NCBI GenBank assembly: GCA_934098705.1
Contig: CAKOPC010000002.1
Span: 158,457-222,456, forward strand
Direction of reading: 5' to 3'
Origin: an uncultured Bacilli bacterium
GTDB taxonomy: Bacteria; Bacillota_I; Bacilli_A; RF39; UBA660
Length of the DNA stretch: 64,000 nt
The notes beneath the pieces are model-generated. The model searched no databases, was not told where the DNA came from, and saw only the letters and a program-made list of their open reading frames with translations. Every line of letters begins with the position of its first letter. The stretch's first letter is position 1. The position numbers and the translations under genes were made by a program. Of this stretch, positions 9,365 to 63,346 are shown in pieces.

Positions 9365-10870
9365 CTATGTATATAACTGGAATGGATCAAAATTATTACC
9401 ATTATAACTTGTTCCAAAGTGTAAGTGGCAACCAGTTGAATAACCAGTTGAACCCATCCTTCCTATCTGCTGTCCCATTTCAACAGCTTGTCCAACAGAC
9501 ACATTACCACTATCAGCCATATGAGCATATAAAGTCTTATATCCATTATTATGATTTATCTCAACATAGTAACCTAAACTATCATTATATCTTACTGTTA
9601 TAACAGTTCCATCATTTGCAGCATAAATTGGAGAACCGCATCCAGTACCTGTTATATCAAGAGCAGCATGCCATCTACTGTAACCAAGTCCAGAGTCCCA
9701 GCCATAATATGTACTTATGTAATATCCAGAACGTGTTGGCCATGCCCAAACACCAGTATTACCAACAACATACTGAGTTCTACTACCAGTCTTAACAATT
9801 CTGTTAATCGCAGGTTTTGTTTCAATAGAGTTAGTAACAAGTGCTGTTTGTACCTTACCATTTTCCCTTAAAACCTTTGTTGTTACAAGTTCCTCACCAT
9901 TTGAACCAGACTGAATAACTTCACTATAACCAACATATATTGAAGAATCCTCAATAATTTCTGTTTTAAATTTTTTTTCTTTAAATTCAACCTCAGTTGT
10001 CTCTTCTGTAATAGTAAGAACAGGATTTATTAAATCAACTATTACCTCTTGTCCTTGAAATAATAAAGTATCAACACTTGAAATATTTTTATTAGCAATT
10101 AAAAACTCTCTTGTATTAAGCTCATTATCATAAGCAATGGAAGATACCGTATCTCCCTGTTTCACAGAGTAAGTTTTTAAATTATCTAAAGAACTATAAA
10201 GTAAATACTGAGCAAGTGTTTTACTATCTGTAAATATTTCCTCATTAACAGAAATATAATCTTGCTTTATATAAACATCCTCTTTTAAATAGACATTATC
10301 TATAACTTGTCCTTCTTCCATATCTTTTATCTTTGGTTGTTCCTCATTTACATAATTTTGATAGTCCTCTTCATCAATAAAAGCTAGAATTGTTTCATCC
10401 ATTGCATCAATAAATATTTGTTTATTCAAAACATTTATTGTATTTTTTAAAACACGTTCTGTTTTTTCTTTATTATCTTTATCATCATCAGTTTTTCCTT
10501 TTTCATATATCTTTATAACATAACCTTTAATAGTAAAAGGTTCATTATCTTTAATTTCTTCATAAATATCTTTAGCTTCCTTTAAACTTTCATTATATGT
10601 AAGCTCTTTATTTATTGTAAGACCATTAGGAGCATAAACTGTATCAATATTATACTGTTCTTTTATTTTTACCTGTTCCTTATTTATATAACTTTCTAAC
10701 TTTTTAGGATCTTTTATAAGTCCAATAGAGTTACCATTAAGATATACCCTGTAAATACTTTGAGCTCCATAATAAATTTTTTTAGTATTTGTTAACATTG
10801 CAAACAACAAACTAATAAATAAAGCTAAAATTGTTAAAATTATCGTCCCTTTCTTACTCAAGTTTTTCAC
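9365..10870 (-). CDS. Membrane-anchored M23 (LytM) family metallopeptidase with a LysM-like domain
   Basis: It has an N-terminal transmembrane helix. The C-terminal M23 motifs are HAALDITG (HxxxD), YAHM and GCHLHFG (HxH). A LysM-like segment, VKQGDTVSSIAYDNELNTREFLIANK, is present. Confidence 0.75.
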   Translation of the reverse strand: MKNLSKKGTIILTILALFISLLFAMLTNTKKIYYGAQSIYRVYLNGNSIGLIKDPKKLESYINKEQVKIKEQYNIDTVYAPNGLTINKELTYNESLKEAKDIYEEIKDNEPFTIKGYVIKIYEKGKTDDDKDNKEKTERVLKNTINVLNKQIFIDAMDETILAFIDEEDYQNYVNEEQPKIKDMEEGQVIDNVYLKEDVYIKQDYISVNEEIFTDSKTLAQYLLYSSLDNLKTYSVKQGDTVSSIAYDNELNTREFLIANKNISSVDTLLFQGQEVIVDLINPVLTITEETTEVEFKEKKFKTEIIEDSSIYVGYSEVIQSGSNGEELVTTKVLRENGKVQTALVTNSIETKPAINRIVKTGSRTQYVVGNTGVWAWPTRSGYYISTYYGWDSGLGYSRWHAALDITGTGCGSPIYAANDGTVITVRYNDSLGYYVEINHNNGYKTLYAHMADSGNVSVGQAVEMGQQIGRMGSTGYSTGCHLHFGTSYNGNNFDPFQLYT

Positions 10871-18900: not shown

Positions 18901-19577
18901 ATCCATTCAGGTTTATTACCTGATTTATAAAAAGCATCTAATATATCAAGTCTTTTAAGTAAACTTGCTCTTTTTTGACCTTGAGCATTTTCAAGTTTTG
19001 CTCTTATATCTTCTATTTCTTTACCTAAATCTACTTTTTTAAGTAATTCTTTTATAGCTTCAGCACCCATTCCTACTTTAAAGCCATCGCCGTATTTTTC
19101 ATAATATGCACGATATTCTTTTTCGGATAAAGTTTGCTTATCTTCAAGTGGTGTTATTCCCTTATCAATAACAACATATGATACAAAATATAATACCTCT
19201 TCAAGATCTCTTTGGCTCATATCAAGTACAGTTCCCATACGTGATGGAACACCTTTAAAGAACCAAATATGAGATACTGGAGTAGCAAGCTCAATATGTC
19301 CCATTCTCTCACGTCTAACTTTTGATCTTGTTACTTCTACTCCACATCTATCACATACAATATTTTTATATTTTACTCTTTTATATTTACCACATGCACA
19401 CTCAAAATCTTTAGTAGGACCAAATATTTTTTCACAATATAATCCATCTCTTTCAGGTTTTAGTGTTCTATAATTTATTGTCTCTGGTTTTTTTACTTCT
19501 CCATAAGACCATTCTCTTATTTTATCAGGAGAGGCAATTCCAATTTTTAGAGCTTCAATTTTATTAACATCTATCAT
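15945..19577 (-). CDS. rpoC: DNA-directed RNA polymerase subunit beta-prime
   Basis: The protein is 1210 aa. The motifs [12 protein letters not shown], the zinc-finger cysteines [21 protein letters not shown] and the trigger loop are present. The start overlaps the rpoB stop. Confidence 0.97.
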
Positions 19578-24860: not shown

Positions 24861-25040
24861 AAGACACCTCCTTATAAAATATATTTTAATCGTGCCTTTA
24901 TAAAAAGTCTTTGTAAGACACTACAAAGACTTTAATATACTTAATTTTAAAGTCCTCGGTAGGATTTACTTTTACAACCTACTGTCTACGGCACAAATAA
25001 ATTTCAAATGTATTATATAATACTTTTATTAATTTGTAAA
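24861..25040 (-). promoter_or_regulatory. Putative L10 (rplJL) leader / autoregulatory 5-prime UTR
   Basis: A 190-nt untranslated gap lies between rplA and rplJ. It contains a perfect 11-bp hairpin (aagtctttgta-agacac-tacaaagactt at about 24907-24934) and further GC-containing stems (cctcggtaggattt...cctactg). This location carries the L10 leader in Firmicutes. Confidence 0.4.
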
Positions 25041-33794: not shown

Positions 33795-34073
33795 CTAAAG
33801 TTTACACCTTAAATGTTTAAAAATTAAATTACCAAGTATAAATGATATTAAAAATATCACTAAAAAATAAATATGTATAATTCCAAAACTTATTAAATTA
33901 TTTGTAATACAAAATATAAAGGTTGCCATTAACATAAATATAATATTTGCTACCACTTTAACTATTTTTGTACTTAAAAAAAGATATTTATAAAAAAGAT
34001 TAAAAAACAAAGAATATAAAAGTCCAAATATAAAATAATAAAATATAGATATTATTTGTATATCAAGTTTCAT
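33795..34073 (-). CDS. yabQ: Spore cortex biosynthesis membrane protein YabQ
   Basis: A small polytopic membrane protein immediately downstream of, and overlapping, yabP. The yabP-yabQ-divIC order is conserved. Confidence 0.6.
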   Translation of the reverse strand: MKLDIQIISIFYYFIFGLLYSLFFNLFYKYLFLSTKIVKVVANIIFMLMATFIFCITNNLISFGIIHIYFLVIFLISFILGNLIFKHLRCKL

Positions 34074-34360
34074 TTAAATAACTTATTAAATATACTATTT
34101 TCTTTATTTGCTTTTTTTTCATCTTCAATATAACTTAAACTTATAAAAGTACCCTTTATTGATACTATACCATCTTTAGTATCAAGTCTTACAATTTCAA
34201 GTCCTAATCCTTTTATAACAAGATAACCCATTGTTGTTTCAATTAAAAATTCTTCTTCATCAAAACTATCAATTTTTAAAACCCCTGTTATATACATACT
34301 TTTTCTTTCATTAACACTGATACCATGATTTTGACTTATACTATTTAAATTTTTATCCAT
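34070..34360 (-). CDS. yabP: Sporulation protein YabP
   Basis: ISVNERKSMYITGVLKIDSFDEEEFLIETTMGYLVIKGLGLEIVRLDTKDGIVSIKGTFISLSY aligns with B. subtilis YabP (VTIRERKHLSVSGVDHIDSFDEEYLLLETNMGKLVIEG...). Confidence 0.85.
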   Translation of the reverse strand: MDKNLNSISQNHGISVNERKSMYITGVLKIDSFDEEEFLIETTMGYLVIKGLGLEIVRLDTKDGIVSIKGTFISLSYIEDEKKANKENSIFNKLFK

Positions 34361-34404
34361 AATATATTCCTCCGTTATAAATATATGTAAAAATTTTTAT
34401 TAAA

Positions 34405-34430
34405 GTACAAAAAAATCCCCTAAGGGATTT
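34405..34430 (-). terminator. Intrinsic terminator of spoVG
   Basis: On the minus strand the hairpin aaatccc-ttag-gggattt is followed by a T8 run, 30 nt after the spoVG stop. Confidence 0.7.
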
Positions 34431-34459
34431 AATTACTAGTTTTAAAGCTTATCCTGCTC

Positions 34460-34717
34460 TTATTCTGCAGTTTTATATGCTTCTAAAATAGCATTTTCAA
34501 ACATTGTACGAGTTTCAGGATTAATTGGATGAGCTATATCACGATATCCTCCAGTTGCTGTTTTTCTACTTGGCATAGCTATAAATAAACCATTATCGCC
34601 CTCAATTATTCTAATATCATGAACTGCGAAGCTATCATCAATTAGAACTGATGCTATTCCTTTCATACGAGATCCTTCTTTTTCAATTTTACGTACATTG
34701 ACTGATGTTATTTTCAT
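34460..34717 (-). CDS. spoVG: Septation protein SpoVG
   Basis: [52 protein letters not shown] is the canonical SpoVG. Confidence 0.93.
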
Positions 34718-34825
34718 CTAACGTTCCTCCTTTTAAAAAGCAAGATGCTTCCTAACTTTAATTTTAGATAAAAGTAAGTAAAAAGTCAAGTAATCTTATA
34801 AAGTTTACAAAATATTTGCAAACCT

Positions 34826-35041
34826 TTACTTAATAATTTCTAAACTACCTATAAAAATATCTGCATATGAAAAAGATTTTATAACATCATCATCATTTAT
34901 TTTTATTAAAAATACTGATTTATAACATTTTACTATTTTACCTTCAAAAGTATAAATTAAATTTCTACTACCATTATATCTAAAAGTTAAATTTTTACCC
35001 TGCATACTATTTATATAGTTTCTAATTTTTTCAAGTTGCAT
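34826..35041 (-). CDS. veg: Veg (biofilm-stimulating small protein, DUF1021)
   Basis: The protein is 71 aa. KSVFLIKINDDDVIKSFSYADIFIGSLEI resembles B. subtilis Veg ([28 protein letters not shown]). It is adjacent to yabG. Confidence 0.8.
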   Translation of the reverse strand: MQLEKIRNYINSMQGKNLTFRYNGSRNLIYTFEGKIVKCYKSVFLIKINDDDVIKSFSYADIFIGSLEIIK

Positions 35042-35835
35042 TATCTAGGATACCCAATATACATTGTACCATTTGTTATAATTCCTCCCATACCATCGGT
35101 ACCATATTTTGTCTTTCCAAGTATTTTAATTAAATCAATATCTTTATTTTTACTAGATAAACTAACTGATGCTGCAATTATTGCTGGATCAAGGGCATGA
35201 ATATTAATTCTTTTAGGGCTTGATGCAAAATTAGAACCAGCCTTTATTAATTCTTCATAATTAGACTGACAAGCTCCTGCTATAACAATCAATTTATCAT
35301 GATCTTTTTCATAACTTCTTGCAACCTTTACAGCTTGTATAAAATTATCACTATTTTTATAGTTAGACATGTTAGTATAATCACCATCTTTATTATAGTA
35401 AGCATCATGTCCTGTTATAACTAAAATATCAGGTTTTATTCTCTCTAAAATTTCATTTAAAGATGATGCAACATCTTTTTCCTTTAAAGTAACTCCATAT
35501 GATAATACATTCATTTCTTTATAAAACTTCATGCACCTATCTAAGTAATCTTTATCAGCATCAATATGCAAAATTTTGCCAGGTAAATAAAAGTATTCAT
35601 CACGATTTAAATTAATAAGATCATTCATTCTATTTATAATACTTCGATCATCTTTTATTAAATCTTGTTCTAAAGACTTATCAACATGTACTAAATCACT
35701 TATACTACTATCTGCAATAAGTCTTATATTTACTCCCTTTAAAATAGCTATTTCATTTTCTATATTAATTATTTTAAAAACAGTATCGTTATTATGAGAC
35801 TTTCTAGTAACTAAATCACCTATATTAAAAAGCAT
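35041..35835 (-). CDS. yabG: Sporulation-specific protease YabG
   Basis: The N-terminus MLFNIGDLVTRKSHNNDTVFKIINIENEIAILKGVNIRLIADSSISDLV aligns with B. subtilis YabG (MQFQIGDMVARKSYQMDVLFRIIGIE...AILHGDEVRLIADSDFSDLV). Confidence 0.85.
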   Translation of the reverse strand: MLFNIGDLVTRKSHNNDTVFKIINIENEIAILKGVNIRLIADSSISDLVHVDKSLEQDLIKDDRSIINRMNDLINLNRDEYFYLPGKILHIDADKDYLDRCMKFYKEMNVLSYGVTLKEKDVASSLNEILERIKPDILVITGHDAYYNKDGDYTNMSNYKNSDNFIQAVKVARSYEKDHDKLIVIAGACQSNYEELIKAGSNFASSPKRINIHALDPAIIAASVSLSSKNKDIDLIKILGKTKYGTDGMGGIITNGTMYIGYPR

Positions 35836-40221: not shown

Positions 40222-40944
40222 TTAAGCTTGTTGTTCAGCGTAAAGTTTAATTTTGAATTCATACTTTTCAGATAAAGATTCATTAGAATGAGTGTTACCA
40301 GTTGAAGTATCTTTAGTAGGTAATACATATTTATCATTTACCCAAGCACGTAGTTCATAAGATTTAAGACCTGAAGCTGTAAATGAATCAGCATCAAGTA
40401 AATAATTAGCTATTCTACCTTCAGCATTATTTGCTTTACCTAAAGTACCTTCAGCTTCAGCTATTGTATTAAATCCAACTCCAGTTGTAGCAGTACCTTT
40501 TAAATATTCAGTACCTTTCTTTAAATTGAAGTTAACTTCACTATCTTGTAAGCATCCATAAGTTACAGCACCATCAGTTGTTTCAGTACAAGCATTTTTT
40601 GTAATTCCTACTTCATAATTAATAGTAGTATTACCACTTAAAGTTGCTGCAACATAAAATTTTAATAATGCAGATTCTCCTGTTGCAGGAGTAATTGCAG
40701 AACCTTTGCCATCTGTCATTGCATATTGATTAGTTAATTTTATTTGTGTTTGATCTGTCAACGCATCTCCAGTTTCTGGGTCTGTTGTTGGATCAACAAC
40801 AACTGAAATACTACCTGTTGTGATTACGTTTTCTTTTGTACCAGTTCCAGTGAAACTATACATAGCATAAGAAACGCCAACAACAACTACGATTAGTACT
40901 AAAACACCAATAACAGAAAGCATTAATGTTTTTTTATTATCCAT
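40222..40944 (-). CDS. Secreted TasA/camelysin-like protein (SipW-cognate signal peptide)
   Basis: LMLSVIGVLVLIVVVVGVSYA|MYSFTGTGTKENVITTGSISV parallels the CalY sequence GGGTFA|FFSDKEVSNNTFAAGTLDL. The protein is T/G/A-rich and beta-type. The C-terminal motif is YELRAWVNDKY. Confidence 0.6.
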   Translation of the reverse strand: MDNKKTLMLSVIGVLVLIVVVVGVSYAMYSFTGTGTKENVITTGSISVVVDPTTDPETGDALTDQTQIKLTNQYAMTDGKGSAITPATGESALLKFYVAATLSGNTTINYEVGITKNACTETTDGAVTYGCLQDSEVNFNLKKGTEYLKGTATTGVGFNTIAEAEGTLGKANNAEGRIANYLLDADSFTASGLKSYELRAWVNDKYVLPTKDTSTGNTHSNESLSEKYEFKIKLYAEQQA

Positions 40945-40991
40945 AATTATTATTCCTTTCTATAAATTAAATTTTATTTGTCAATTATTTA

Positions 40992-41621
40992 TTATTGTCC
41001 TATTGCGTTTACTTTAGAATCAACGTTTACTTTAATTTTGTATTCTTGTTCTTTAATTGTATTAGCATCAGCATTTGCATCAACCCAAATTCTTAAATTA
41101 TAAGTTGTTGTTGCTTCACCTGTTTTTACAGTACCATTTTCATATGCAACACTTGTTTCATAAAGTTTGTATGCATCAGTTCTTAATGCTGATTTGTTAG
41201 AATCAAGTACAACTGCTGACATTAATTGTTTTGGAACTACTTCAGTTTCAGTTGTTGTACCTTTTGTTAAGTAAACTGCAACTGCAGAATCTGCAAGTGT
41301 TGAAGTTTCTTTAGTAATATTGATTTCATATGGTACAGTAACTGTTCCACTTGCTGTTGTTGCAACTGTAAATGTAAATACATTTTTATCACCAGTTAAT
41401 TTCTTTCCAGCATCATCAGAAATTGGTAATGCATTCTCAAGTAAAATACCGTTAGTTGGTTCAGTATAACTCATTGTAATAGTACCTGTTGAAATTGAGT
41501 TATCTTTTCCAGTTGCTCCTGTTGAATAAAGTGCAAAAGATACACCTACTACTGCAACAAGTAATATTGCTACTCCTAATACTGATAAGAATACTTTTCT
41601 TGAATTGTCTTCTTCCATCAT
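40992..41621 (-). CDS. Secreted TasA/camelysin-like protein, candidate major subunit (tandem duplicate A)
   Basis: GVAILLVAVVGVSFA|LYSTGATGKDNSISTGTITMSYTEP. It is about 80% identical to 41779..42408. The C-terminal motif is YNLRIWVDANADA. Confidence 0.6.
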   Translation of the reverse strand: MMEEDNSRKVFLSVLGVAILLVAVVGVSFALYSTGATGKDNSISTGTITMSYTEPTNGILLENALPISDDAGKKLTGDKNVFTFTVATTASGTVTVPYEINITKETSTLADSAVAVYLTKGTTTETEVVPKQLMSAVVLDSNKSALRTDAYKLYETSVAYENGTVKTGEATTTYNLRIWVDANADANTIKEQEYKIKVNVDSKVNAIGQ

Positions 41622-41778
41622 TTTTTTCTATCCTCCTTATATTATGATAATACTATATTTTTTGGGGAATTGCAATATTTTTTTGTTCTATTTTTTTATA
41701 ATTTTTAAAAATTAAATGTTTTATGTAAAGTATAAAAAAGGTATTACCCAAAAGGCAACACCTAAGTATTTAATTCTT

Positions 41779-42408
41779 TTATTTTCCTATTGCGTTTACT
41801 TTAGAATCAACATTTACAAATAGCTTATATGTTTGATCTTTAATAGCGTCAGCATCAGCATTTGCATCAACCCAAATTCTTAAATTATAAGTTGTTGTTG
41901 CTTCACCTGTTTTTACAGTACCATTTTGATATACAACATTTGTACTGTAAAGTTTATAAGAGTCAGTTCTATAAGTAGATTTATTAGCAGTTGTTACAAC
42001 TTGAGACATTAATTTTTTTGCAACAACCTCAGTTTCAGTTGTTGTACCTTTTGTTAAATAAACTGCAACTGCTCCATCAGCAAGAGTTGTTGAAGAATCT
42101 TTAGTTATATTTATTTCATATGGTACAGTAACTGTTCCACTTGCTGTTGCAGAAACTGTAAATGTAAATACATTACCTTCACCCTTCAAACTCTTTCCTT
42201 CTGCATCAGATATTGGTAAAGCATTTGTTAAGTTAATACCATTTGATGGTTCAGTATAACTCATTGTAATAGTACCTGTTGAAATTGAGTTGACTTTTCC
42301 AGTTGAACTAGTTGAATAAAGTGCAAATGATACACCTATTACTGCAACAACTAGAATTGCTACTCCTAACACTGATAAAAGTACCTTTCTTGAACTATTT
42401 TCTTCCAT
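41779..42408 (-). CDS. Secreted TasA/camelysin-like protein, candidate major subunit (tandem duplicate B)
   Basis: GVAILVVAVIGVSFA|LYSTSSTGKVNSISTGTITMSYTEP. The rest is near-identical to 40992..41621. Confidence 0.6.
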   Translation of the reverse strand: MEENSSRKVLLSVLGVAILVVAVIGVSFALYSTSSTGKVNSISTGTITMSYTEPSNGINLTNALPISDAEGKSLKGEGNVFTFTVSATASGTVTVPYEINITKDSSTTLADGAVAVYLTKGTTTETEVVAKKLMSQVVTTANKSTYRTDSYKLYSTNVVYQNGTVKTGEATTTYNLRIWVDANADADAIKDQTYKLFVNVDSKVNAIGK

Positions 42409-45542: not shown

Positions 45543-45775
45543 AAAAAAAATTTTCATCCCAAAGGACGAAAATATCGTGGTACCACCTTATTTTATAAGT
45601 ATAACAAAATAACAATGTTAAAACTTATCTCAATCTTTTAACGCAAGATAAACGTATTTACTTACATATCAGTAAATCTGTTCCAAAACCATGTTCAGTT
45701 TTATCTACTACTTATTTACACCGACCATAAGCTCTCTATTAATAAATATAAACCTACTCTTTTCTTCACAACATT
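45543..45775 (-). promoter_or_regulatory. Putative T-box riboswitch leader (specifier probably AUG/Met) ahead of dut-metS
   Basis: The minus strand carries AGAGAG followed by cttATGg (a candidate specifier). Further on is AAGGTGGTACCACGA, which matches the T-box sequence AGGGTGGTACCGCG. Then comes the terminator hairpin ttttcgtcc-tttg-ggatgaaaa plus a T8 run, then the RBS aaggagga and the ATG. Confidence 0.55.
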
Positions 45776-45807
45776 TTTTTAATGCATAAATTATAACATA
45801 TATTTTT

Positions 45808-46338
45808 TTATTCTTCAATATATTTTCCTAAAAATTTAGCAGCTATAGATATAGTTTTTACATCAAAATCATCTAATCTTCTTGTTGTTGACATCATAAT
45901 AACAGCTCCAATAGCATCTCCATTACCTATAATTGGTGCAATAATATAACTTGATAGTTCTAAAACATTTGGTATAAGTGAAAATTCTTTAAAAGAAGGC
46001 TCAAAAACAACATTTCTCTTTTGTATTATTTTATCTATTTCATCTGATATAGACATATTTAAATACTTTTTCTTTAAACTACCCGCTATAGCAACAATAT
46101 TATTTCTATCAACAATTATTATATTTTCATTAACATATAAATTTATACTATCTGCATAATTTTTATAAAAATCTACTAAATCGCCTAAATCTGAATATTT
46201 TTTTAAAATAATATTATCACTATCTAAAAATATTTCAAGAGATTCACCATCTTTTATACGCATACTCTTTCTAATCTCTTTGGGAATTACAATTCGTCCT
46301 AAATCATCTATCCTTCTTACAACTCCTGTTGTTTTCAT
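45808..46338 (-). CDS. spoVT: Stage V sporulation protein T (AbrB-N domain plus GAF)
   Basis: MKTTGVVRRIDDLGRIVIPKEIRKSMRIKDGESLEIF is an AbrB/SpoVT swapped-hairpin N-terminus. The C-terminal 120 aa are GAF-like. It follows mfd, as in Bacillus. Confidence 0.85.
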   Translation of the reverse strand: MKTTGVVRRIDDLGRIVIPKEIRKSMRIKDGESLEIFLDSDNIILKKYSDLGDLVDFYKNYADSINLYVNENIIIVDRNNIVAIAGSLKKKYLNMSISDEIDKIIQKRNVVFEPSFKEFSLIPNVLELSSYIIAPIIGNGDAIGAVIMMSTTRRLDDFDVKTISIAAKFLGKYIEE

Positions 46339-53166: not shown

Positions 53167-54882
53167 TCACTTTAATTCTATTAATTCATCACCAAATAGA
53201 TCTTTTGCCTCATCTAACATTTCATTAGAATCTAAATTTTTAGATGATTCATCACTTATTTTTTCATCATCTAAATTTTTTTCCTGTTGTATCTCATATT
53301 TTATACCATTTTTTAAATCTTGTATATACTTTTGTTTTAAATCCTTCCACTCGTCTTCTAAAATAAAAGCAATTTTATAATGATGTTTCATGGCATCTTC
53401 AAGTAACTCCTCTATTTTAGATATATTAATTAAAGCATTTTTCAAAATTGAACTATATTTTACAGAAACTATTATGTAGTTGTTAGAAGCAACCTTTAAA
53501 ACTCCATCATTCAAATAAGAGCATACTTTACTATATTTTTCAGTAAAAGAATATTCATTTATAGTAGGCCAATTTAACCTTAATTTTTCTAAAATATTCT
53601 TATCAGCCTCTGCAAAAGCATTATTTATTCTAATTAACCTATTTTCTTCAATAACAGAAGACAATTTTGAAATTTTATCATTTAATTCTTTAGATTCTTC
53701 AAATTTTACCTTACCATCTTCAACATAAATACTTTTTTCCTTTATTAAATTAATAGGTGTTACTAAATCTTCTTTAGTATTTTCTTTTTCTTTTTGTAAA
53801 TTTTCAGGTACAAAATTACCAAAATTTTCCTTTTTTTGATTTTTTTCTAATATTTTTAATAATCCAACTTGTAAAATTATTTTAGGAAAGCTACTATTTT
53901 TCATGTTAATAGAAACATCATTTAATATATCAATAGCATCATATATCACTTTTGCATCTAATATACTATTTTTATTATTTTCTATTGCATCAACTAACAT
54001 ATCTTTTAAAAATATCATTAATTCTTGTGCTAATAAGACAAGATTCTTGCCTTTACTATCTTCATCATCAATTTTATCAAACATTTGTTTGATATTGTCG
54101 TTATTAATGCAATCAACAATTATCTTTAAATCCTCTTGCTTAGTAAGCCCCCTTATCTCATAAAAATCATCTTCAGTTACTTTATTATTACAAGAAATAA
54201 GTTTATCAAGCATATTAATAGCATCTCTTAATCCACCATCACTATATTTTGCAATTAATTCCAATGTTCCACGTGGAACATCTAAATTTTCACGTTCTAC
54301 TATCTCATTTAATTTCTTTACTATATCTTTTTCACTTATTTTTTCAAAATTAAAGCATTGGCATCTTGAAACAATAGTTTCTGGAACTTTATAAAATTCG
54401 GTTGTTGCTAATATAAATATTACATGTTGAGGAGGCTCTTCCAAAGTTTTTAGTAAAGCATTAAACGCTCCTATAGACAACATATGTACCTCATCTATAA
54501 TATAAACTTTATATTTTGAAATTGAAGGCATTAAATCTACTTTTTCTTTTATTTCTCTAATTTCATCAACACCATTATTTGAAGCAGCATCAATTTCAAT
54601 AATATCAGGGTTATTCTTATTATTATAAGCTATACAACTATCACATTTATCACAAGCTACTAAACCAGTTCTATTAGAACAATTAACTAATTTAGCAATT
54701 AATTTGGCTGTAGTAGTCTTACCAGTACCCCTAGGACCTGAAAACAAATAAGCATGAGATATTTTATTATTATTAATTGAATTTTCAAGTATTTTTACTA
54801 TTTTATTTTGTCCCACAACTTCTTCAAATTTTTGTGGTCTATATTTTCTATATAAAGCTAAATAACTCATATTCCCACTCAC
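53167..54882 (-). CDS. dnaX: DNA polymerase III subunits gamma/tau
   Basis: YRPQKFEEVVGQ, GPRGTGKTT (Walker A), the zinc module CDKCDSC and DEVHML are present. Confidence 0.95.
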   Translation of the reverse strand: MSGNMSYLALYRKYRPQKFEEVVGQNKIVKILENSINNNKISHAYLFSGPRGTGKTTTAKLIAKLVNCSNRTGLVACDKCDSCIAYNNKNNPDIIEIDAASNNGVDEIREIKEKVDLMPSISKYKVYIIDEVHMLSIGAFNALLKTLEEPPQHVIFILATTEFYKVPETIVSRCQCFNFEKISEKDIVKKLNEIVERENLDVPRGTLELIAKYSDGGLRDAINMLDKLISCNNKVTEDDFYEIRGLTKQEDLKIIVDCINNDNIKQMFDKIDDEDSKGKNLVLLAQELMIFLKDMLVDAIENNKNSILDAKVIYDAIDILNDVSINMKNSSFPKIILQVGLLKILEKNQKKENFGNFVPENLQKEKENTKEDLVTPINLIKEKSIYVEDGKVKFEESKELNDKISKLSSVIEENRLIRINNAFAEADKNILEKLRLNWPTINEYSFTEKYSKVCSYLNDGVLKVASNNYIIVSVKYSSILKNALINISKIEELLEDAMKHHYKIAFILEDEWKDLKQKYIQDLKNGIKYEIQQEKNLDDEKISDESSKNLDSNEMLDEAKDLFGDELIELK

Positions 54883-54984
54883 TTTCTTAAAATATACATT
54901 AATATTATACCTTATAACCCATTTTATTTAAAGATTTTTGTCATTTTAAAGAAAAATATTTAATAATTTTTGTTAATATCTCAA

Positions 54985-55000
54985 TGTTCCACGTGGAACA
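54985..55000. repeat. parS-type palindrome TGTTCCACGTGGAACA (copy 1)
   Basis: An exact 16-bp palindrome with one symmetric substitution relative to the ParB/Spo0J consensus TGTTTCACGTGAAACA. It sits within the 20-bp perfect palindrome AATGTTCCACGTGGAACATT. Confidence 0.75.
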
Positions 55001-55151
55001 TTATAAAAATAATATAAAAATAACTGAAAATTGATAATTTTAGCCTTTTTTAGCTTAAATTAACATTATTTTTATATTTTATATCAAATTTATAAAGTAT
55101 ATTGCATATAATTTTTTTTATAAACATCACTTTTATTGTTAATAACTCCAA

Positions 55152-55167
55152 TGTTCCACGTGGAACA
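55152..55167. repeat. parS-type palindrome (copy 2)
   Basis: TGTTCCACGTGGAACA, preceded by the conserved flank ttattgttaata. Confidence 0.75.
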
Positions 55168-55253
55168 TTGGGCATTTTTATATTAAATAACCAAAATTAT
55201 TATTTTTTATATTTACAAAATAATTATATTTAAAATATAATATCTTTAAAAAT

Positions 55254-55269
55254 TATTTCCCGGGAAATA
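55254..55269. repeat. Noc-binding-site (NBS) palindrome TATTTCCCGGGAAATA (copy a)
   Basis: An exact match to the published B. subtilis Noc-binding consensus. It sits within the 20-bp palindrome ATTATTTCCCGGGAAATAAT. Confidence 0.7.
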
Positions 55270-55374
55270 ATTTTTTATTTGTTAAATTATAACATTATCG
55301 TTTTAATTTATTAATATATCAAAACTATATTAAATATAGTTTTGATATTGTACTTTTTATTGTTAATAAATCAA

Positions 55375-55390
55375 TGTTCCACGTGAAACA
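55375..55390. repeat. parS site TGTTCCACGTGAAACA (copy 3, variant)
   Basis: Identical to the B. subtilis spo0J-internal parS sequence. Confidence 0.8.
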
Positions 55391-55569
55391 TTAAAATTAA
55401 TTTAAATAATGGTATTTAGAATAACATTTAATTAAATATCAAGACATTATTAAATCATATATATAAATATAGTTTTATTTTTTATAATATAAAATTAATT
55501 ACTAATAAATATGTATAATTTTATAATTAAATTTAAAAATTATATTTTATATTTTGTTAATATTTATAA

Positions 55570-55585
55570 TGTTCCACGTGGAACA
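55570..55585. repeat. parS-type palindrome (copy 4)
   Basis: TGTTCCACGTGGAACA with the flank tttgttaatatttata. Confidence 0.75.
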
Positions 55586-55696
55586 TAGTAATCATTAATT
55601 AAAACCATTCCAATCATAATTAATAAAAAGTAATTAAAAAATATATATTATTACTTTTTATTATAATCTATGTTTTTTTTATTGTTAATATCTTAA

Positions 55697-55712
55697 TGTT
55701 CCACGTGGAACA
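55697..55712. repeat. parS-type palindrome (copy 5)
   Basis: TGTTCCACGTGGAACA. Confidence 0.75.
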
Positions 55713-55825
55713 TTATATATGTTATATATAAAATAGTAAAAAAAATGCACATTTTAATATATTTAATATATAGTAATATATTTATAATTTGTTATATTTA
55801 AATTTGTTAAAAATATTAAAAAAAT

Positions 55826-55841
55826 TATTTCCCGGGAAATA
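55826..55841. repeat. NBS palindrome TATTTCCCGGGAAATA (copy b)
   Basis: An exact NBS consensus with a conserved flank (aaaattatttcccgggaaataattttttattt). Confidence 0.7.
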
Positions 55842-55915
55842 ATTTTTTATTTATTGATTAAAATATATAATTATTTTTATATAAATATTGAAAAATATTA
55901 TTGTTAATAAATCAA

Positions 55916-55931
55916 TGTTCCACGTGGAACA
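55916..55931. repeat. parS-type palindrome (copy 6), abutting or overlapping the tadA stop codon
   Basis: TGTTCCACGTGGAACA. The 20-bp palindrome ends at 55933, which is the tadA stop. Confidence 0.75.
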
Positions 55932-55932
55932 T

Positions 55933-56340
55933 TTACCTTAATTTATCAAAAAAAGTATTTAAAAGCTTACTATAACTGATTTTATCCGCTATTTTATAAT
56001 AATTTATATTGTTTACAAAATTTTTATGATAGTTAGAGTCCAAAATATAATATACTTTAGAAATTCTCGATTCATTTATCGCACCCTCACACATTTTACA
56101 TGGTTTTAACGTTGTATATAATATACAATCACTTAATATCCATGTTTTTAATTTTTTACAAGCCCTTTTTATAGCAATTATTTCAGCATGAGCTATAGAA
56201 ATATTAGTTGAATTTTTCATATTATGAGCTTTTGCAATTACTTTGCCATCTTTTACAATAATTGCACTTACTGGTACATTATTGTTTTTATATGCTTTCT
56301 TTGCTTCCTTAAAAAGAATTTCCTCATACTTATCATTCAT
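55933..56340 (-). CDS. tadA: tRNA-specific adenosine(34) deaminase TadA. The start is reassigned to the internal ATG at 56340; the ORF track extends it to 56460.
   Basis: HAEIIAIKRA and PCKMCEGAI (the CDA zinc motifs H-A-E and PC-x-x-C) are present. MNDKYEEILFKEAKKAY aligns with the TadA N-terminus. The RBS ggtgg lies 7 nt upstream of the ATG at 56340. The first 40 aa of the longer ORF have no homology. Confidence 0.85.
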   Translation of the reverse strand: MNDKYEEILFKEAKKAYKNNNVPVSAIIVKDGKVIAKAHNMKNSTNISIAHAEIIAIKRACKKLKTWILSDCILYTTLKPCKMCEGAINESRISKVYYILDSNYHKNFVNNINYYKIADKISYSKLLNTFFDKLR

Positions 56341-56512
56341 AAATACCACCATTTTTTTAATATTAATAAAAAAGTGCACACACATAGAGGTTATTAAGGC
56401 TGCTACTTTCCAATCCTGACCTATTTCTAACATTTGTGTTGCACATATAAATACTAACAAAAATATTATTACTTTGTCAATAAATATTTATTTTTTTATT
56501 ATTAATATTTAA

Positions 56513-56528
56513 TGTTCCACGTGGAACA
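56513..56528. repeat. parS-type palindrome (copy 7)
   Basis: TGTTCCACGTGGAACA. Confidence 0.75.
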
Positions 56529-56631
56529 TTAATAAAGATGATAAATAATTTTTGCAAATATAGTATAATTTATTTAAAAAAATGCTATTATTATTATTTA
56601 TAATGGTTTTTTACTATTGTTAATAAATCAA

Positions 56632-56647
56632 TGTTCCACGTGGAACA
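56632..56647. repeat. parS-type palindrome (copy 8)
   Basis: TGTTCCACGTGGAACA with the flank ctattgttaataaatc. Confidence 0.75.
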
Positions 56648-56743
56648 TTGTACGTTTTTATATAAAATAACTAAAGTTATCATTTTTTTATATCAATAAA
56701 ATAATTATATTTAAATTTTTAAAATATAATATCTTTCAAAAAT

Positions 56744-56759
56744 TATTTCCCGGGAAATA
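56744..56759. repeat. NBS palindrome TATTTCCCGGGAAATA (copy c)
   Basis: An exact NBS consensus. Its flanks are about 90% identical to those of copy a. Confidence 0.7.
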
Positions 56760-56880
56760 ATTTTTTTATTTATTAATTACATTGTTAATGCTTAAAATTA
56801 TTAATAATTTGATTTATCAATATATAATAACAATATCAAATATATTTTTAATATTGTATTTTTTATTGTTAATAAATCAA

Positions 56881-56896
56881 TGTTCCACGTGGAACA
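56881..56896. repeat. parS-type palindrome (copy 9)
   Basis: TGTTCCACGTGGAACA with the flank ttttattgttaataaatc. Confidence 0.75.
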
Positions 56897-57078
56897 TTGA
56901 AATTAAATTAAATAATGAAGTATAAAAAATAGTTGATTAGATAATAAAATATTAGTAATTGATATATAAACTATTACATTGGTATTTTTTTGTTTATAAT
57001 ATTAAAATTATTGATACTATCACAATTAAATTAAAATATTAGTAAATAATATATTTTAAAATTTGTTAATATTTATAA

Positions 57079-57094
57079 TGTTCCACGTGGAACA
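57079..57094. repeat. parS-type palindrome (copy 10)
   Basis: TGTTCCACGTGGAACA with the flank tttgttaatatttata (the same as copy 4). Confidence 0.75.
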
Positions 57095-57258
57095 TTGACT
57101 AACAATACATATTACTTAATACATATTTCAAATATTAATATCTAAATTAAAAGTATAATAAAATATACATATATATTAATTGTTTATCTTTTACTTTAAA
57201 ATGTTATTATTTTTGTAAAATATTATTAGTTAATGAATAATATTTTACAAAAATGCAA

Positions 57259-57274
57259 TGTTCCACGTGGAACA
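57259..57274. repeat. parS-type palindrome (copy 11), embedded in a 28-bp perfect palindrome that ends at the gyrA stop
   Basis: ATGCAATGTTCCACGTGGAACATTGCAT at 57253..57280. The gyrA stop codon is at 57280..57282. Confidence 0.75.
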
Positions 57275-57279
57275 TTGCA

Positions 57280-59733
57280 TTAATTATTATTTTCTTCAGT
57301 ATTATCAAATACCTCTTCTTCTTCTTTTTCAGTAATAGTAACTGATGTAACAGTTTGATTTTCCTTTAGTGAAATTAATCTAACACCTTGAGTATTTCTC
57401 TTTAATGTAGAAATTTTATTAATATCAAGTCTTATAACAATACCATTATTTGTTGTTATAATTGCATCTTCATCACCATCTATTGATTTAAATGCTACCA
57501 AATGTCCATTTTTATCAGTAATGTTTAATCCTTTAACACCCTTACTACCTCTATGTGTTAAACGATATTCTAAAACATTTGTTCGCTTTCCGTAACCCTT
57601 TTCTGTAATGATTAAAATCATTTTATCTTTATTAACAATTTCAGCTCCTACAACAACTTCATCTTCTTTTATATCAATTCCTTTAACACCAGAAGCACTT
57701 CTACCCATTAAACGAACTTCATCTTCAGTAAATCTTACCATTCTACCATTATTTGAAGCCATTATTACTTCATCAATACCAGAAGTCTTACAAACACTTA
57801 TTAATTCATCATCATCTTTTAAAGTTATAGCTATTTTACCAGTTTTTCTTATTAAATCAAATTCTTCTGTTGGAGTACGTTTTACAAGACCTTTTTTAGT
57901 AAAGAATATTAAACTTAAAGGTTTATCCTCATTTTTATCACTATAATTAATAATTGACCTAATACTTTCACCCTTATCTAACTGTAAAAGATTAATTATA
58001 GGTATTCCCTTAGATTGTCTACTAAATTCTGGAATTTCATAACCCTTAATTCTATAAACTCTACCATAATTACTAAAGAATAAAATATAATCATGTGAAC
58101 TACATGTTATAAGTTGTTCTACATAGTCCTCTTCATTTGTTGTCATACCTTTTATTCCAACACCACCACGGTTTTGTGATTTATAAGTATTTACAAGCAA
58201 ACGTTTTATATATCCCTTACTTGTAAGAGAAATCATTATTTTTTCTTCAGGAATTAATGACTCATCCTCTATATAATCAATAGCTGTCATATCAATATTA
58301 GTACGACGTTCATCTGCATATTTTTCTTTTATTTCAAGTAATTCACTCTTAATTATACCAAGTACCTTTTCATCACTTGCTAATATTGAATTTAATTCAT
58401 CTATTAATTTTAACAATTCTTGTAATTCATTTTCAACTTTATCACGTTCAAGACCTGTTAAACGACGTAATTTCATTTCCAAAATAGCATCAGCTTGAAT
58501 TTCTGTTAAACCAAAATTACTAATTAATCCTTGTTTTGCAATTTCATCAGTTTTTGATTCACGAATAAGTTTAATTACGGCATCAATATGATCAAGTGCT
58601 ATTTTTAAGCCTTCTAAAATATGAACTCTAGCTTGAGCTTTACTTAAATCAAACCTTGTCCTACGAATTATTACTTCTCTTTGGAAATCAATATACTTTG
58701 AGATTATATCCTTTAAACATAAAGTTTTAGGAGTACCATTATCAAGCATTAAGAATATAATTCCATATGTTGTTTGAAAAGCAGTATGCTTATATAATTT
58801 ATTTAAAATAACCTGTGGATTAGCATCTTTTTTCAAAGTAATTGTTATTTTAATACCATTTTTTAAATCACTATGATAATCAGTTATACCATCTATTGTT
58901 TTGTTATGAACTAACTCTGCAACCTTATTTTTTAATTCTGATGTATTAACACCATATGGTACTTCATCTATTATAATATAATGTTTTCCATTTTTTTCCT
59001 CTATTGTAGCTTTACTTCTTATAGTAATACTACCTCTTCCTGTTTCATATGCCTTTTTAATACCACTATTACCTAAAATAGTTGCTCCGGTTGGAAAATC
59101 AGGTCCTTTTATAAACTTCATTAAACCATCTGTATCTATATCAGGATTGTCTATATAAGCTACACAACCATCAATTACTTCACCTAAATTATGAGGTGGT
59201 ATATTAGTTGCCATACCAACTGCTATTCCCATTGTTCCATTTACTAATATATTAGGAAACCTTGATGGTAAAACAGAAGGTTCTTTTTCTGAATCATCAA
59301 AGTTTGGAACAAAATCAACCGTATCCTTATTTATATTTCTTAAAAGTTCAAGTGATATTTTTGATAAACGAGATTCTGTATAACGCATTGCAGCAGCTCC
59401 ATAACCTTCTATATTACCAAAATTACCATGTCCATCAACTAACATATGTCTGTAAGAAAAATCCTGTGCCATTCTTACCATAGCTTCATAAATTGAACTA
59501 TCACCATGTGGATGATATTTACCCATTACATCTCCAACTATTCTTGCACTTTTTTTATGAGGTTTATCAGGTGTATATCCAGATTCATACATAGAATATA
59601 AAATTCTTCTATGTACTGGCTTTAAACCATCTCTTAAATCAGGTAAAGCACGAGCAATGATAACACTCATTGAATAGTCCAAAAATGAATCTTTTACTTC
59701 TTTTACTATATTATTTTTTTCTAAACGATCCAT
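57280..59733 (-). CDS. gyrA: DNA gyrase subunit A
   Basis: The active-site region is AAMRYTE. The QRDR region [16 protein letters not shown], the GyrA-box and an acidic C-terminal tail are present. Confidence 0.97.
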
Positions 59734-62878: not shown

Positions 62879-63346
62879 TTATTCTTCTTTTTTTAGACTT
62901 GTTCTAACATTTAATACAGAATTTAAAAGTGATGCTTTAACCATTTGATTATATATTTGATTATATGGTATTCTTATAATAAATTTTTTACCAGTTTTAA
63001 AAAGTATAAGCGTATTTTTATCCTTTTTTTTAAGTTCTAAAATATTATTAAAAGCAATCCACATATTATTAGATAATCTAGGAGATGTTGTTGGAAAAAA
63101 CGTTATATTATTTCTTTCATCTATTATAATTGGTGTTTTATATATTTTTCCAAGCAAATTTTTACTACCTTCTATCCTCCCATTATAAGAACTACCATAA
63201 AATTTACAACTATCATTAACTATTGTATAAATATCACAGTTTACTCTGTATTCTTTATTATTTTCAATAACTTTTGTCACTGTTTGCTTTAATGGCACTA
63301 AAGCACAAGTATTTTCATTAATCAAATAACCCATAAAATCCCCCAA
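62879..63346 (-). CDS. comK: ComK-family competence transcription factor homolog
   Basis: CKFYGSSYNGRIEGS is close to B. subtilis ComK CRFFGSSYAGRKAGT. KTPIIIDERNNITFFPTTSP is close to KPPIMVDPSNQIFLFPTLSS. IRIPYNQIYNQMVKASLL is close to LPISYNSFENQVYRTAWL. Confidence 0.65.
   Translation of the reverse strand: MGDFMGYLINENTCALVPLKQTVTKVIENNKEYRVNCDIYTIVNDSCKFYGSSYNGRIEGSKNLLGKIYKTPIIIDERNNITFFPTTSPRLSNNMWIAFNNILELKKKDKNTLILFKTGKKFIIRIPYNQIYNQMVKASLLNSVLNVRTSLKKEE

Follow-up and report, generated by a model that had tools for sequence, protein, structure and literature searches.

Interleaved parS and Noc-binding sites form a conserved origin-proximal array in uncultured gut Bacilli and suggest a shared loading zone for two paralogous CTP clamps

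Why would the recognition sites of two paralogous DNA-binding proteins lie interleaved in a single intergenic region next to the replication origin? ParB with parS and Noc with its binding site (NBS) are the standard example of how a DNA-binding protein, once duplicated, acquired a new specificity and a new job. We are interested in a 64-kb stretch of DNA from an uncultured Bacilli bacterium (hereafter the window), in which three palindromes resembling NBS are found among closely spaced parS sites. A preliminary description had proposed that they belong to a composite element recruiting both ParB and a Noc-like clamp or, alternatively, that they are a relic of the evolution of NBS from parS.

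The window contains twelve parS sites, eleven with the sequence TGTTCCACGTGGAACA and one with TGTTCCACGTGAAACA. They match the consensus TGTTNCACGTGAAACA and lie near oriC, 9.5–12.5 kb from the start of dnaA. No parS was found elsewhere in the 64-kb window outside the group at 54265–57274, and all 12 CACGTG hexamers of the window fall within parS sites. Eleven of the twelve sites share one intergenic region with the NBS, whose spacers have a GC content of 12–20%. The features are as follows.

53167–54870, minus strand: dnaX, the downstream boundary of the array.
54265–54280, no strand assigned: the twelfth parS, within the dnaX coding sequence.
54985–57274, no strand assigned: the intergenic array with 11 parS and 3 NBS, supported by parS matches, repeat families and composition.
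Starts of the parS 16-mers in the array: 54985, 55152, 55375, 55570, 55697, 55916, 56513, 56632, 56881, 57079, 57259.
55252–55271, no strand assigned: NBS copy 1, ATTATTTCCCGGGAAATAAT (16-mer 55254–55269; extended palindrome 55248–55276), exact match and inverted repeat.
55824–55843, no strand assigned: NBS copy 2, ATTATTTCCCGGGAAATAAT (16-mer 55826–55841; extended palindrome 55817–55847), exact match and inverted repeat.
56742–56761, no strand assigned: NBS copy 3, ATTATTTCCCGGGAAATAAT (16-mer 56744–56759; extended palindrome 56738–56768), exact match and inverted repeat.
55933–56340, minus strand: tadA-like deaminase gene (135 aa) within the array; its identical counterpart in locus L001 matches Pfam dCMP_cyt_deam_1.
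56358–56453, minus strand: gene for the small SRP RNA, likewise within the array (Rfam RF00169, 58.7 bits).
57280–59733, minus strand: gyrA, which bounds the array on its upstream side in every related species.

Tandem Repeats Finder detected no long-period tandem array in the window. The array of this species is a degenerate mosaic of repeat families, whereas relatives carry clean tandem arrays (see below). We rejected a DnaA-box cluster as a candidate feature, as TTATCCACA at up to one mismatch gave 25 matches against 25.9 expected, none of them in the array. The window also encodes the sporulation genes YabP, SpoVG, YabG, and SpoVT.

The 20-mer ATTATTTCCCGGGAAATAAT occurs in three exact copies, starting at 55252, 55824, and 56742, and no further match was found at up to three mismatches in the 64-kb window. 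Its 14-mer core ATTTCCCGGGAAAT is restricted to the same three places at up to two mismatches in the window, and the only three CCCGGG hexamers of the entire 64 kb are those within the NBS. By chance, 0.02–0.10 occurrences would be expected (0.02 for the 20-mer in shuffled sequences). All three copies match the published 16-bp NBS TATTTCCCGGGAAATA exactly. The starts given in the preliminary description (55254, 55826, and 56744) are correct for this inner 16-mer, the 20-mer beginning 2 bp earlier. The palindrome reported there is indeed present but is longer than described, extending to 28–31 bp (AAAAATTATTTCCCGGGAAATAATTTTT). Paralogous copies in the window agree at 100% of the palindrome positions, compared with 63–79% identity in the flanks. 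Each copy sits between two parS sites, as originally noted. Measured from start to start, the upstream parS is 102, 129, and 112 bp away and the downstream parS 121, 90, and 137 bp away for copies 1, 2, and 3, respectively. These three NBS are the only copies in the roughly 84 kb of this species that we inspected.

The two types of sites in the window genome differ at six positions, including the published specificity positions 2, 7, 10, and 15. In the NBS half-site, A at position 2 and C at position 7 are read by Q173 and R201 of Noc, whereas parS has G and A at these positions (PMC7383237). The assignment of the four specificity positions in the preliminary description holds: every NBS copy carries the A/C state in both halves and every neighbouring site the G/A state. 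Half-sites are strictly bimodal throughout the clade, with no chimeric site and nine intermediates among 728 sites. Among the NBS variants, single transitions at the central CpG predominate.

This bimodality bears on the notion that the array is a relic of evolution, with NBS derived from duplicated parS copies and no longer serving any role. Tandem duplication of parS would provide redundancy and leave some copies free to drift, and noc itself originated from a duplication of parB (PMC7383237). The near absence of intermediates lends no support to such drift. Because the NBS match those of Bacillus and Staphylococcus in every base, their specificity was already complete, and the copies are conserved exactly despite diverged spacers. 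Single transitions at the central CpG are what one would expect of occasional decay. We consider a relic highly improbable.

To place the array in a wider context, we compared it within the species and among its relatives. The same array, with two to three NBS, is present in ten further assemblies of this species that derive from other samples, and all 27 copies are exact. The related species have DnaA proteins 53–83% identical to that of the window; the best DnaA matches in the genome-contig scan were 80–83% identical, and the window's own species was not among them. The spacer from gyrA over tadA to dnaX contains parS and NBS together in 39 of the 40 related species whose loci extend past gyrA. 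We counted 132 exact NBS in 1.26 Mb of origin-proximal DNA (80 related species), and 103 of them have a parS no more than 300 bp away. The palindromes are thus not randomly placed, and they have been kept together with parS in the relatives, two points on which the preliminary description had made its proposal depend.

Several species carry the two sites in strict tandem units of about 125 bp, each with one parS and one NBS, in up to 10.7 copies. A 125-bp unit of this kind is repeated 10.7 times at locus L055 and a 127-bp unit 8.8 times at locus L079, and the units of the relatives' tandem arrays range from 36 to 127 bp. From species to species, the distance between NBS and parS ranges from 21 bp to above 130 bp, which argues against a fixed geometry of a ParB–Noc co-complex.

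Not all NBS of the clade are found in such arrays. About half to three quarters of the sampled NBS have a parS within 300 bp, and isolated copies exist too. Of 219 NBS in a metagenome sample, 92 lacked a parS, either within 3 kb or anywhere in the fetched stretch, and ORFs contain half of these 92. Isolated NBS recur in the mnmG–mnmE and mnmE–jag spacers of the clade. Such sites would fit ordinary nucleoid occlusion, in which the NBS of the array are the origin-proximal share of a scattered set and their co-location with parS is functionless. They would then gather in the gyrA–dnaX spacer as a rare long non-coding stretch of a compact genome. Coding DNA is no barrier to NBS, as the isolated copies within ORFs indicate, and neither the presence of both site types in one spacer in 39 of 40 species nor the one-to-one alternation in the tandem units of several species agrees with functionless co-location. 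The density of sites also speaks against a scattered set. B. subtilis has about 70 NBS in 4.2 Mb, or one per 60 kb. Using a pattern that included the AT flanks of NBS, we found at least 18 site-bearing stretches on 17 contigs longer than 100 kb (about 3.3 Mb) among the matches listed, which is sparser than in B. subtilis. The isolated NBS of the clade would be compatible with a conventional scattered role for Noc; as an account of the array, we regard ordinary occlusion as unlikely.

Instead of binding a protein, the palindromes could form hairpins in RNA or DNA, serving as intrinsic terminators in both directions or belonging to a repeat element. They are flanked by runs of A and T, and a 12-bp stem with a CCGG loop can be folded. 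The stem contains a single G-C pair and folds weakly, at −7.6 to −9.2 kcal/mol (z-scores −1.4 to −2.2). Covariation is not seen, the sequence being invariant even in the would-be loop, and tandem copies are repeated up to 10 times in relatives with no genes between them. The isolated copies within ORFs do not fit this reading either. A consensus scan for intrinsic terminators flagged hairpins at parS and not at NBS, and no copy directly abuts a gene end. We find hairpins an extremely improbable explanation.

If the palindromes are genuine NBS, a Noc protein would be expected to read them. We reached the noc region of the species by a search with RsmG and subsequently through members of the RsmG cluster. 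The resulting locus (L091) shares its contig with L002, a locus bearing the array together with a RecR identical to that of the window. Its gene order is rsmG, an RNase R-like gene, noc-like, parA, and parB, located on the opposite side of oriC from the array. A noc homologue distinct from spo0J, which the preliminary description had presupposed, is therefore present in the same species. The gene in the noc position encodes a protein of 411 aa, and the ParB encoded beside ParA consists of 293 aa.

Compared with solved structures, the Noc-like protein scores 213, 212, and 189.5 bits to Noc and 174.5 bits to Spo0J, whereas ParB scores 220.6 bits to Spo0J and 162 to Noc. The best matches are reciprocal, pairing the Noc-like protein with Noc and ParB with Spo0J. 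The N-terminal domain of the Noc-like protein matches Pfam ParB_N and HTH_ParB. Aligned with the Noc structures (GERRxR, ENLQR), the CTP motifs GERRFRA and ENLQRKNL are intact. The C-terminal 65 residues match positions 201–255 of the 255-position Noc profile (E = 3.9e-7), to which the C-terminus of ParB shows no match. The whole Noc-like protein scores 300.8 bits against TIGR04285, below the curated NCBIfam cut-off of 315, and ParB scores 237.4 bits. None of the thousands of Noc-like relatives in the protein collection bears a name given by its source. For the predicted domain assignment, we regard the matches to the solved Noc structures as decisive.

The recognition regions of the two paralogs correspond to the two states of the sites. 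The Noc-like protein has GKSQ..ANK..LRLLN..SERHAR, that is, Q, K, N, and R (Q173, K179, and R201, with N at 184). Among clade members, 45 of 46 Noc-like proteins have Q-K-x-R and the remaining one Q-K-x-K; at position 184, K is replaced by N, T, A, or S. Q173 and R201 together with one lysine at either 179 or 184 are sufficient for NBS specificity (Jalal 2020, PMC7383237). The corresponding region of ParB, NKSR..TNI..LGILT..MGHAR, has R, I, T, and G (R173 and G201). R173 is present in each of the 29 ParB sequences scored, and their residue 201 is G, S, or A. ParB also contains the N-terminal ParA-contact motif LGRGLEELF. One related locus (L064) has an array with parS only, yet its Noc carries Q-K-N-R.

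CCCGGG-centred palindromes could in principle be read by other dimeric regulators, and the match to NBS might be coincidental or convergent if another helix-turn-helix protein or a ParB of relaxed specificity bound them. We judge this very unlikely. All 16 bases of the NBS are matched in more than 50 species, and a paralog with the exact NBS-reading residues is always encoded nearby. The ParB of every species is in the parS state, with R173 and a small residue at 201, and the nine intermediates among the 728 sites make targets for a relaxed reader scarce. In B. subtilis, nucleation and spreading of Noc start strictly at NBS, and parS DNA elicits no response (PMC8429893).

The Noc-like protein differs from known Noc proteins at the N-terminus. 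Residue 5 of the Noc-like protein aligns with residue 26 of Geobacillus thermoleovorans Noc (7NFU). The Geobacillus Noc NΔ26 construct, which lacks α1 and α2, begins at residue 26 (PMC8429893). The Noc-like protein starts where this deletion construct starts and is accordingly without the membrane-targeting amphipathic helix. The ATG is preceded by a ribosome-binding site, with an in-frame stop two codons upstream. The Noc-like proteins of the clade share this start, and the upstream stop precedes the NRFQPR motif by at most 30 codons in 41 of 49 noc-like genes. Before the C-terminal domain, the protein contains an unconserved, Glu/Lys-rich, and disordered-looking linker of about 160 aa. Neither a Noc without the membrane helix nor interleaved parS/NBS arrays were found described in our search of largely open-access literature.

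The Noc–NBS systems of Bacillus subtilis, Geobacillus, and Staphylococcus aureus use the same 16-bp site TATTTCCCGGGAAATA. They also share the CTP-binding domain, the helix-turn-helix with Q173, K179, and R201, the Noc-type C-terminal domain, and the rsmG-noc-parA-parB neighbourhood. Their sites are scattered, whereas those described here are concentrated in one parS-interleaved array. The known proteins have α1 and α2, which include the membrane-targeting amphipathic helix and are both absent from the clade Noc. The clade Noc has the long Glu/Lys-rich linker, a residue other than K at 184, and a score just below the cut-off. Chromosomal ParABS systems resemble the present one in the canonical parS, a ParB with R173, G201, and LGRGLEELF, an adjacent ParA, and sites about 10 kb from dnaA. 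Bacillus has a handful of parS spread over hundreds of kilobases. The array described here packs 11 intergenic parS into 2.3 kb, with tandem arrays in relatives, and the sites of a second protein are built into the same repeat unit.

Iterated centromeres are familiar from plasmids. F sopC consists of tandem short repeat units, each with a palindromic site for the centromere protein. Our array shares this organization but is chromosomal, lies beside oriC without plasmid genes, and combines the sites of two paralogs in each unit. In sporulating B. subtilis, RacA anchors the origin through ram sites, which are distributed across hundreds of kilobases and do not alternate with parS. Both cases involve palindromic non-ParB sites near oriC in spore-forming Bacillota, with different protein families and site sequences; no anchoring partner is known for the array described here. 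ParB–parS and Noc–NBS have been placed side by side in mParSpot, an engineered two-colour system for labelling pairs of loci (PMC11109969), which requires that the two protein–site pairs stay distinct. Whereas mParSpot is artificial and used in heterologous cells, the array reported here is natural, conserved, and chromosomal.

Taken together, we favour the view that NBS and parS probably form a composite origin-proximal loading zone for two paralogous CTP clamps. The composite element suggested in the preliminary description thus gains support from the pair of paralogs, their matching residues, and the conservation of the array, while recruitment itself is deduced from sequence. ParB, with its parS-type residues and ParA-contact motif, would nucleate at parS. 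The Noc ortholog, with NBS-type residues and intact CTP motifs, would nucleate at the interleaved NBS. Both proteins would slide off their own sites as clamps. With sites 20–140 bp apart, sliding clamps would come to share the occupancy of an AT-rich stretch of about 2.3 kb, approximately 10 kb from oriC. [quoted passage not shown] The clade-wide conservation of the array and a Noc without the usual membrane anchor suggest that Noc of this clade probably acts at the centromere and not chromosome-wide. Noc may add a second activity to the origin partition complex, for instance by bridging or condensing DNA, by positioning the origin, or by controlling division or initiation locally.

A more far-reaching version, which we consider possible but doubtful, is that the clade Noc is a second centromere clamp and not a nucleoid-occlusion factor, forming a mixed partition complex of two paralogs on the array. 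The disordered linker might then serve for bridging, condensation, or docking of a polar, division, or initiation partner. If the helix-less form is ancestral, Noc would have begun as a centromere-associated duplicate of ParB, with membrane binding and dispersed sites acquired later.

The array is a natural co-array, with both types of sites in one repeat unit by oriC, in a large clade of uncultured gut Bacilli. It raises the question of how two orthogonal CTP clamps loaded 20–140 bp apart affect each other, whether as roadblocks, by co-condensation, or by mutual confinement. For annotation, the Noc orthologs of the clade fall just under the curated NCBIfam threshold. The membrane helix that accounts for the function of Bacillus Noc is absent from the Noc of the clade, whether through loss or from the beginning. 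The clade therefore offers a natural system for the role of Noc without membrane binding and a concrete lineage for tracing how Noc and NBS diverged from ParB and parS.

The predicted Noc-binding sites (NBS) of the window are three exact copies of the 20-mer ATTATTTCCCGGGAAATAAT, starting at 55252, 55824 and 56742, against a chance expectation of 0.02 from shuffles. This bears out the three exact palindromes of the preliminary description, which gave the start coordinates of the inner 16-mer TATTTCCCGGGAAATA. No further match to the 20-mer was found in the 64-kb window when up to three mismatches were allowed, and the 14-bp core ATTTCCCGGGAAAT is absent outside the same three places with up to two mismatches. 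Twelve parS sites lie within 54265–57274, eleven reading TGTTCCACGTGGAACA and one TGTTCCACGTGAAACA, and none was found elsewhere in the window. All CCCGGG hexamers of the 64 kb fall within the three NBS palindromes, and all CACGTG hexamers within parS sites. As had been described, every NBS is flanked by parS on both sides, at start-to-start distances of 90–137 bp.

The following features of the window define the setting of the array.

57280–59733, minus strand: gyrA
56358–56453, minus strand: small SRP RNA (Rfam, 58.7 bits)
55933–56340, minus strand: tadA-like deaminase gene
53167–54870, minus strand: dnaX
33795–35835 and 45808–46338: sporulation-associated YabP, SpoVG, YabG and SpoVT genes

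The real genes across the array region are on the minus strand, where the order is recF, gyrB, gyrA, array DNA, the SRP RNA, the tadA-like gene, more array DNA, dnaX, ybaB and recR. The GC content is 25.8% for the window and 12–20% for the array spacers. Because the window encodes the four sporulation-associated proteins and a LysM/M23 peptidase, the organism is a walled member of the Bacilli and probably forms spores; the “Mycoplasma” and “Tenericutes” labels of related MAGs are misleading. Its RecR and ComK proteins were found on many human-gut metagenome contigs (Hadza and other cohorts). In ten loci of the window species (L001–L010), dnaA lies 9.5 kb upstream of the first parS, and the number of array modules differs between strains, with 2–3 NBS and 13–16 parS per 20-kb locus; all NBS copies are exact (27/27).

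Several other features of the window were recorded. A ComK-family gene (62879–63334) and a Bax1-I family membrane protein gene (beyond 63416) lie between dnaN and recF, a position occupied by a small S4-like gene in Bacillus. Three tandem paralogous genes at 40222–42408 (minus strand) encode proteins of 209–240 residues, each with a single N-terminal transmembrane segment and the common motif LSVLGVAIL..VGVSFALYS; the three had no Pfam match, and a partial ORF at the start of the window resembles them in its N-terminus. A T-box leader (45559–45778, minus strand) precedes the dUTPase-like and metG genes, and rplJ has an L10 leader (24892–25009, minus strand) upstream; both are ordinary.

The window array is made up of diverged repeat families in a mosaic, without a clean tandem repeat. 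In the NBS-bearing family, the palindrome, which extends to 28–31 bp (AAAAATTATTTCCCGGGAAATAATTTTT), is identical in all copies, whereas the flanks are only 63–79% identical. We rejected a terminator or hairpin as the explanation of the NBS: the stem of the fold has one G-C pair, its free energy lies between −7.6 and −9.2 kcal/mol (z-scores −1.4 to −2.2), and a terminator scan did not call it. In relatives, moreover, copies are repeated in tandem without genes, others lie inside ORFs, and the would-be loop is invariant. A DnaA-box cluster was likewise discarded, as the boxes are not enriched.

As for the parS sites, the coding sequence of dnaX contains one (54265–54280). It is separated by 720 bp from the closest intergenic parS, and most other strains have it too, equally spaced. 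The sites directly after the gyrA and tadA stop codons (57252–57281 and 55914–55933) form an extended hairpin followed by a T-rich tail and may double as terminators; all seven terminator-like flags near the array (0.2 expected) are parS sites. The motif TTATTGTTAATA stands 5–7 nt upstream of most parS copies in the window species (54957–57287, families D2, D3 and D5). It is not conserved in the clade-wide logo and may therefore reflect merely shared repeat ancestry.

A DnaA-based scan with one genome per species gave 80 loci; they come from uncultured gut Bacilli whose DnaA is 53–83% identical. Forty of them extend at least 500 bp past gyrA, and we checked the 3.5 kb after gyrA, allowing one mismatch for NBS. 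Related species retain the NBS together with parS: both occur in 39 of the 40 loci, and one has parS only. The sites fall in the gyrA-tadA-dnaX spacers throughout. Several species show strict parS/NBS alternation. One relative (L055) has a 125-bp tandem unit in 10.7 copies (91% match) with one parS and one NBS per unit, and another (L079) a 127-bp unit in 8.8 copies; the site maps of L061, L078, L051, L060 and L070, to which TRF was not applied, display the same alternation. Distances between an NBS and its closest parS vary from 21 to more than 130 bp (median 58 bp), with no fixed geometry conserved across the clade loci. Random placement of the NBS is not what we observed, since 103 of 132 exact copies in the 80 loci (1.26 Mb) have a parS no more than 300 bp away. 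The array next to oriC interleaves two orthogonal site types, an arrangement conserved across the clade. The clade-wide NBS consensus is AAAATTATTTCCCGGGAAATAATTTT, sharing AAT/ATT shoulders with parS, and most variants differ from it by a single transition at the central CpG. Among 728 scaffold-fitting sites, there were nine intermediates and no chimeras that pair a parS half-site with an NBS half-site. The suggestion that the array is a relic of the origin of NBS from parS found no positive evidence, the half-sites being bimodal.

Two relatives differ in their arrangement. L022 carries a pure parS tandem array (18885–19260; 36-bp unit, 10.4 copies, 91% match) with a single NBS 600 bp off. 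L064 has a parS-only array after gyrA (18844–19491); an exact NBS at 9682 precedes its dnaA start by 320 bp, within the presumed oriC region. The specificity positions of the L064 Noc are nonetheless Q, K, N and R.

The loci reached from the window proteins end at rsmG. A further locus of the window species, L091, was reached via an RsmG search and cluster members; it shares contig ERZ28614928 scaffold_227 with L002, which has the array and a RecR identical to that of the window. There, across oriC from the array, rsmG is followed by an RNase R-like gene and then by genes for a 411-residue ParB-family protein, ParA (263 residues) and a 293-residue ParB. Apart from one inserted gene, this matches the Bacillus order gidB-noc-soj-spo0J. 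The inserted RNase R-like gene (10760–12889 of L091) encodes 709 residues with an RNB domain; at least in the relative L019, rsmG directly adjoins the noc-like gene. A noc homolog distinct from spo0J, which the preliminary description proposed to look for, is therefore encoded by the window species. The 411-residue protein scored 300.8 bits against the nucleoid occlusion family TIGR04285, under the cut-off of 315, and the 293-residue ParB 237.4 bits. Against solved structures, the former ranks Geobacillus Noc (213 and 212 bits) and B. subtilis Noc (189.5) above Spo0J (174.5), and the latter ranks them oppositely (Spo0J 220.6, Noc 162). The last 65 residues of the Noc-like protein match Noc profile positions 201–255 (E = 3.9e-7); the ParB C-terminus had no match. 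GERRxR and ENLQR motifs are retained in both proteins. In B. subtilis Noc, the substitutions R89A and N121S each abolish CTP binding (PMC8429893), and we take R89 and N121 as lying in these motifs.

The choice between parS and NBS is set by four positions (Jalal et al. 2020, PMC7383237), with R173, T179, A184 and G201 in ParB and Q173, K179, K184 and R201 in Noc. Q173 reads adenine 1 of the half-site and R201 cytosine 6, and a single lysine at 179 or 184 suffices as the permissive residue (PMC7383237). The 411-residue protein reads Q, K, N, R (GKSQ-SAVAN-K-LRLL-N...SE-R-HAR) and the 293-residue protein R, I, T, G (NKSR-SHITN-I-LGIL-T...M-G-HAR), so one predicted reader is encoded for each site type of the array. 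The Noc-like proteins of the clade are all Q-K-x-R, except for one Q-K-x-K, and the ParBs all combine R173 with a G, S or A at position 201. Judged by their sequences, the two paralogs have recognition residues matching the sites and intact CTP motifs. Another binding protein or a relaxed ParB is very unlikely, given the exact NBS match, the cognate reader that is always present and the practical absence of intermediate sites.

The Noc paralog of the clade lacks the membrane helix. When the Noc-like protein is aligned to G. thermoleovorans Noc (7NFU), its residue 5 falls on residue 26, at which the crystallised NΔ26 construct, devoid of the membrane-targeting amphipathic helix α1 and of helix α2, starts (PMC8429893). 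The start codon of the noc-like gene is secure because of an in-frame stop two codons upstream and the ribosome-binding site aaagaggg before the ATG. The NRFQPR motif lies 15–20 residues from the start in 46/46 complete clade proteins, and its counterpart in B. subtilis Noc is near residue 40 in the alignment; 41 of 49 clade noc-like genes have an upstream in-frame stop at most 30 codons before NRFQPR. Residues ~200–360 form an unconserved Glu/Lys-rich linker of variable length, the clade proteins having 351–519 residues.

A metagenome scan with AATTATTTCCCGGGAAATAATT returned at least 120 stretches, nearly all of 22–31% GC. Of the 219 exact NBS among the matches listed, 102 have a parS no farther than 300 bp away, 25 have one at 0.3–3 kb, and 92 have none within 3 kb or in the fetched stretch, about half of these 92 being inside ORFs; isolated NBS therefore exist. 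In a sub-clade (L025, L026, L028, L029, L031, L036, L046 and L067), isolated exact NBS recur at equivalent positions upstream of dnaA. Checked in L026 alone, the copies at 6114 and 7575 occupy the mnmG-mnmE and mnmE-jag spacers, on the opposite side of oriC from the array. Since isolated sites exist, ordinary scattered nucleoid occlusion stays the main rival reading, albeit an unlikely one, as it leaves both the one-to-one tandem units and the missing membrane helix unexplained. The NBS density looks low, with the caveat that the pattern included the AT shoulders: among the matches listed, 17 contigs above 100 kb (~3.3 Mb) gave 18 NBS stretches. In the ~84 kb inspected for the window species, the only NBS are the three of the array.

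NBS have been described as scattered around the chromosome (PMC8429893, PMC4331003), with 41 dispersed loci in S. aureus (PMC5540599). The full-text literature searched, of incomplete coverage, described neither arrays in which parS and NBS are interleaved nor a natural Noc that lacks the membrane helix, in keeping with the earlier view that such co-clustering was undescribed. The parts are all known; the arrangement and the Noc variant are new.

The N-terminus of the ParB carries the peptide KRKALGRGLEELF, which we take to be its ParA-contact motif, and ParB presumably drives ParA-dependent segregation. ParB and Noc are CTP-gated sliding clamps (PMC8429893; PMC7053999). By analogy, each protein of an interleaved array would nucleate on its own sites, close around DNA and slide, so that both populations would share the same 2–3 kb of AT-rich DNA, including the tadA and SRP RNA genes. 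The known route of membrane tethering would be closed to the Noc paralog, which presumably supplies another origin activity via its linker and C-terminal domain. Candidate activities are bridging or condensation, mutual roadblocking that would confine ParB spreading, origin anchoring in sporulation by analogy with RacA-ram, and local control of initiation, which has been reported for S. aureus Noc (PMC5540599).
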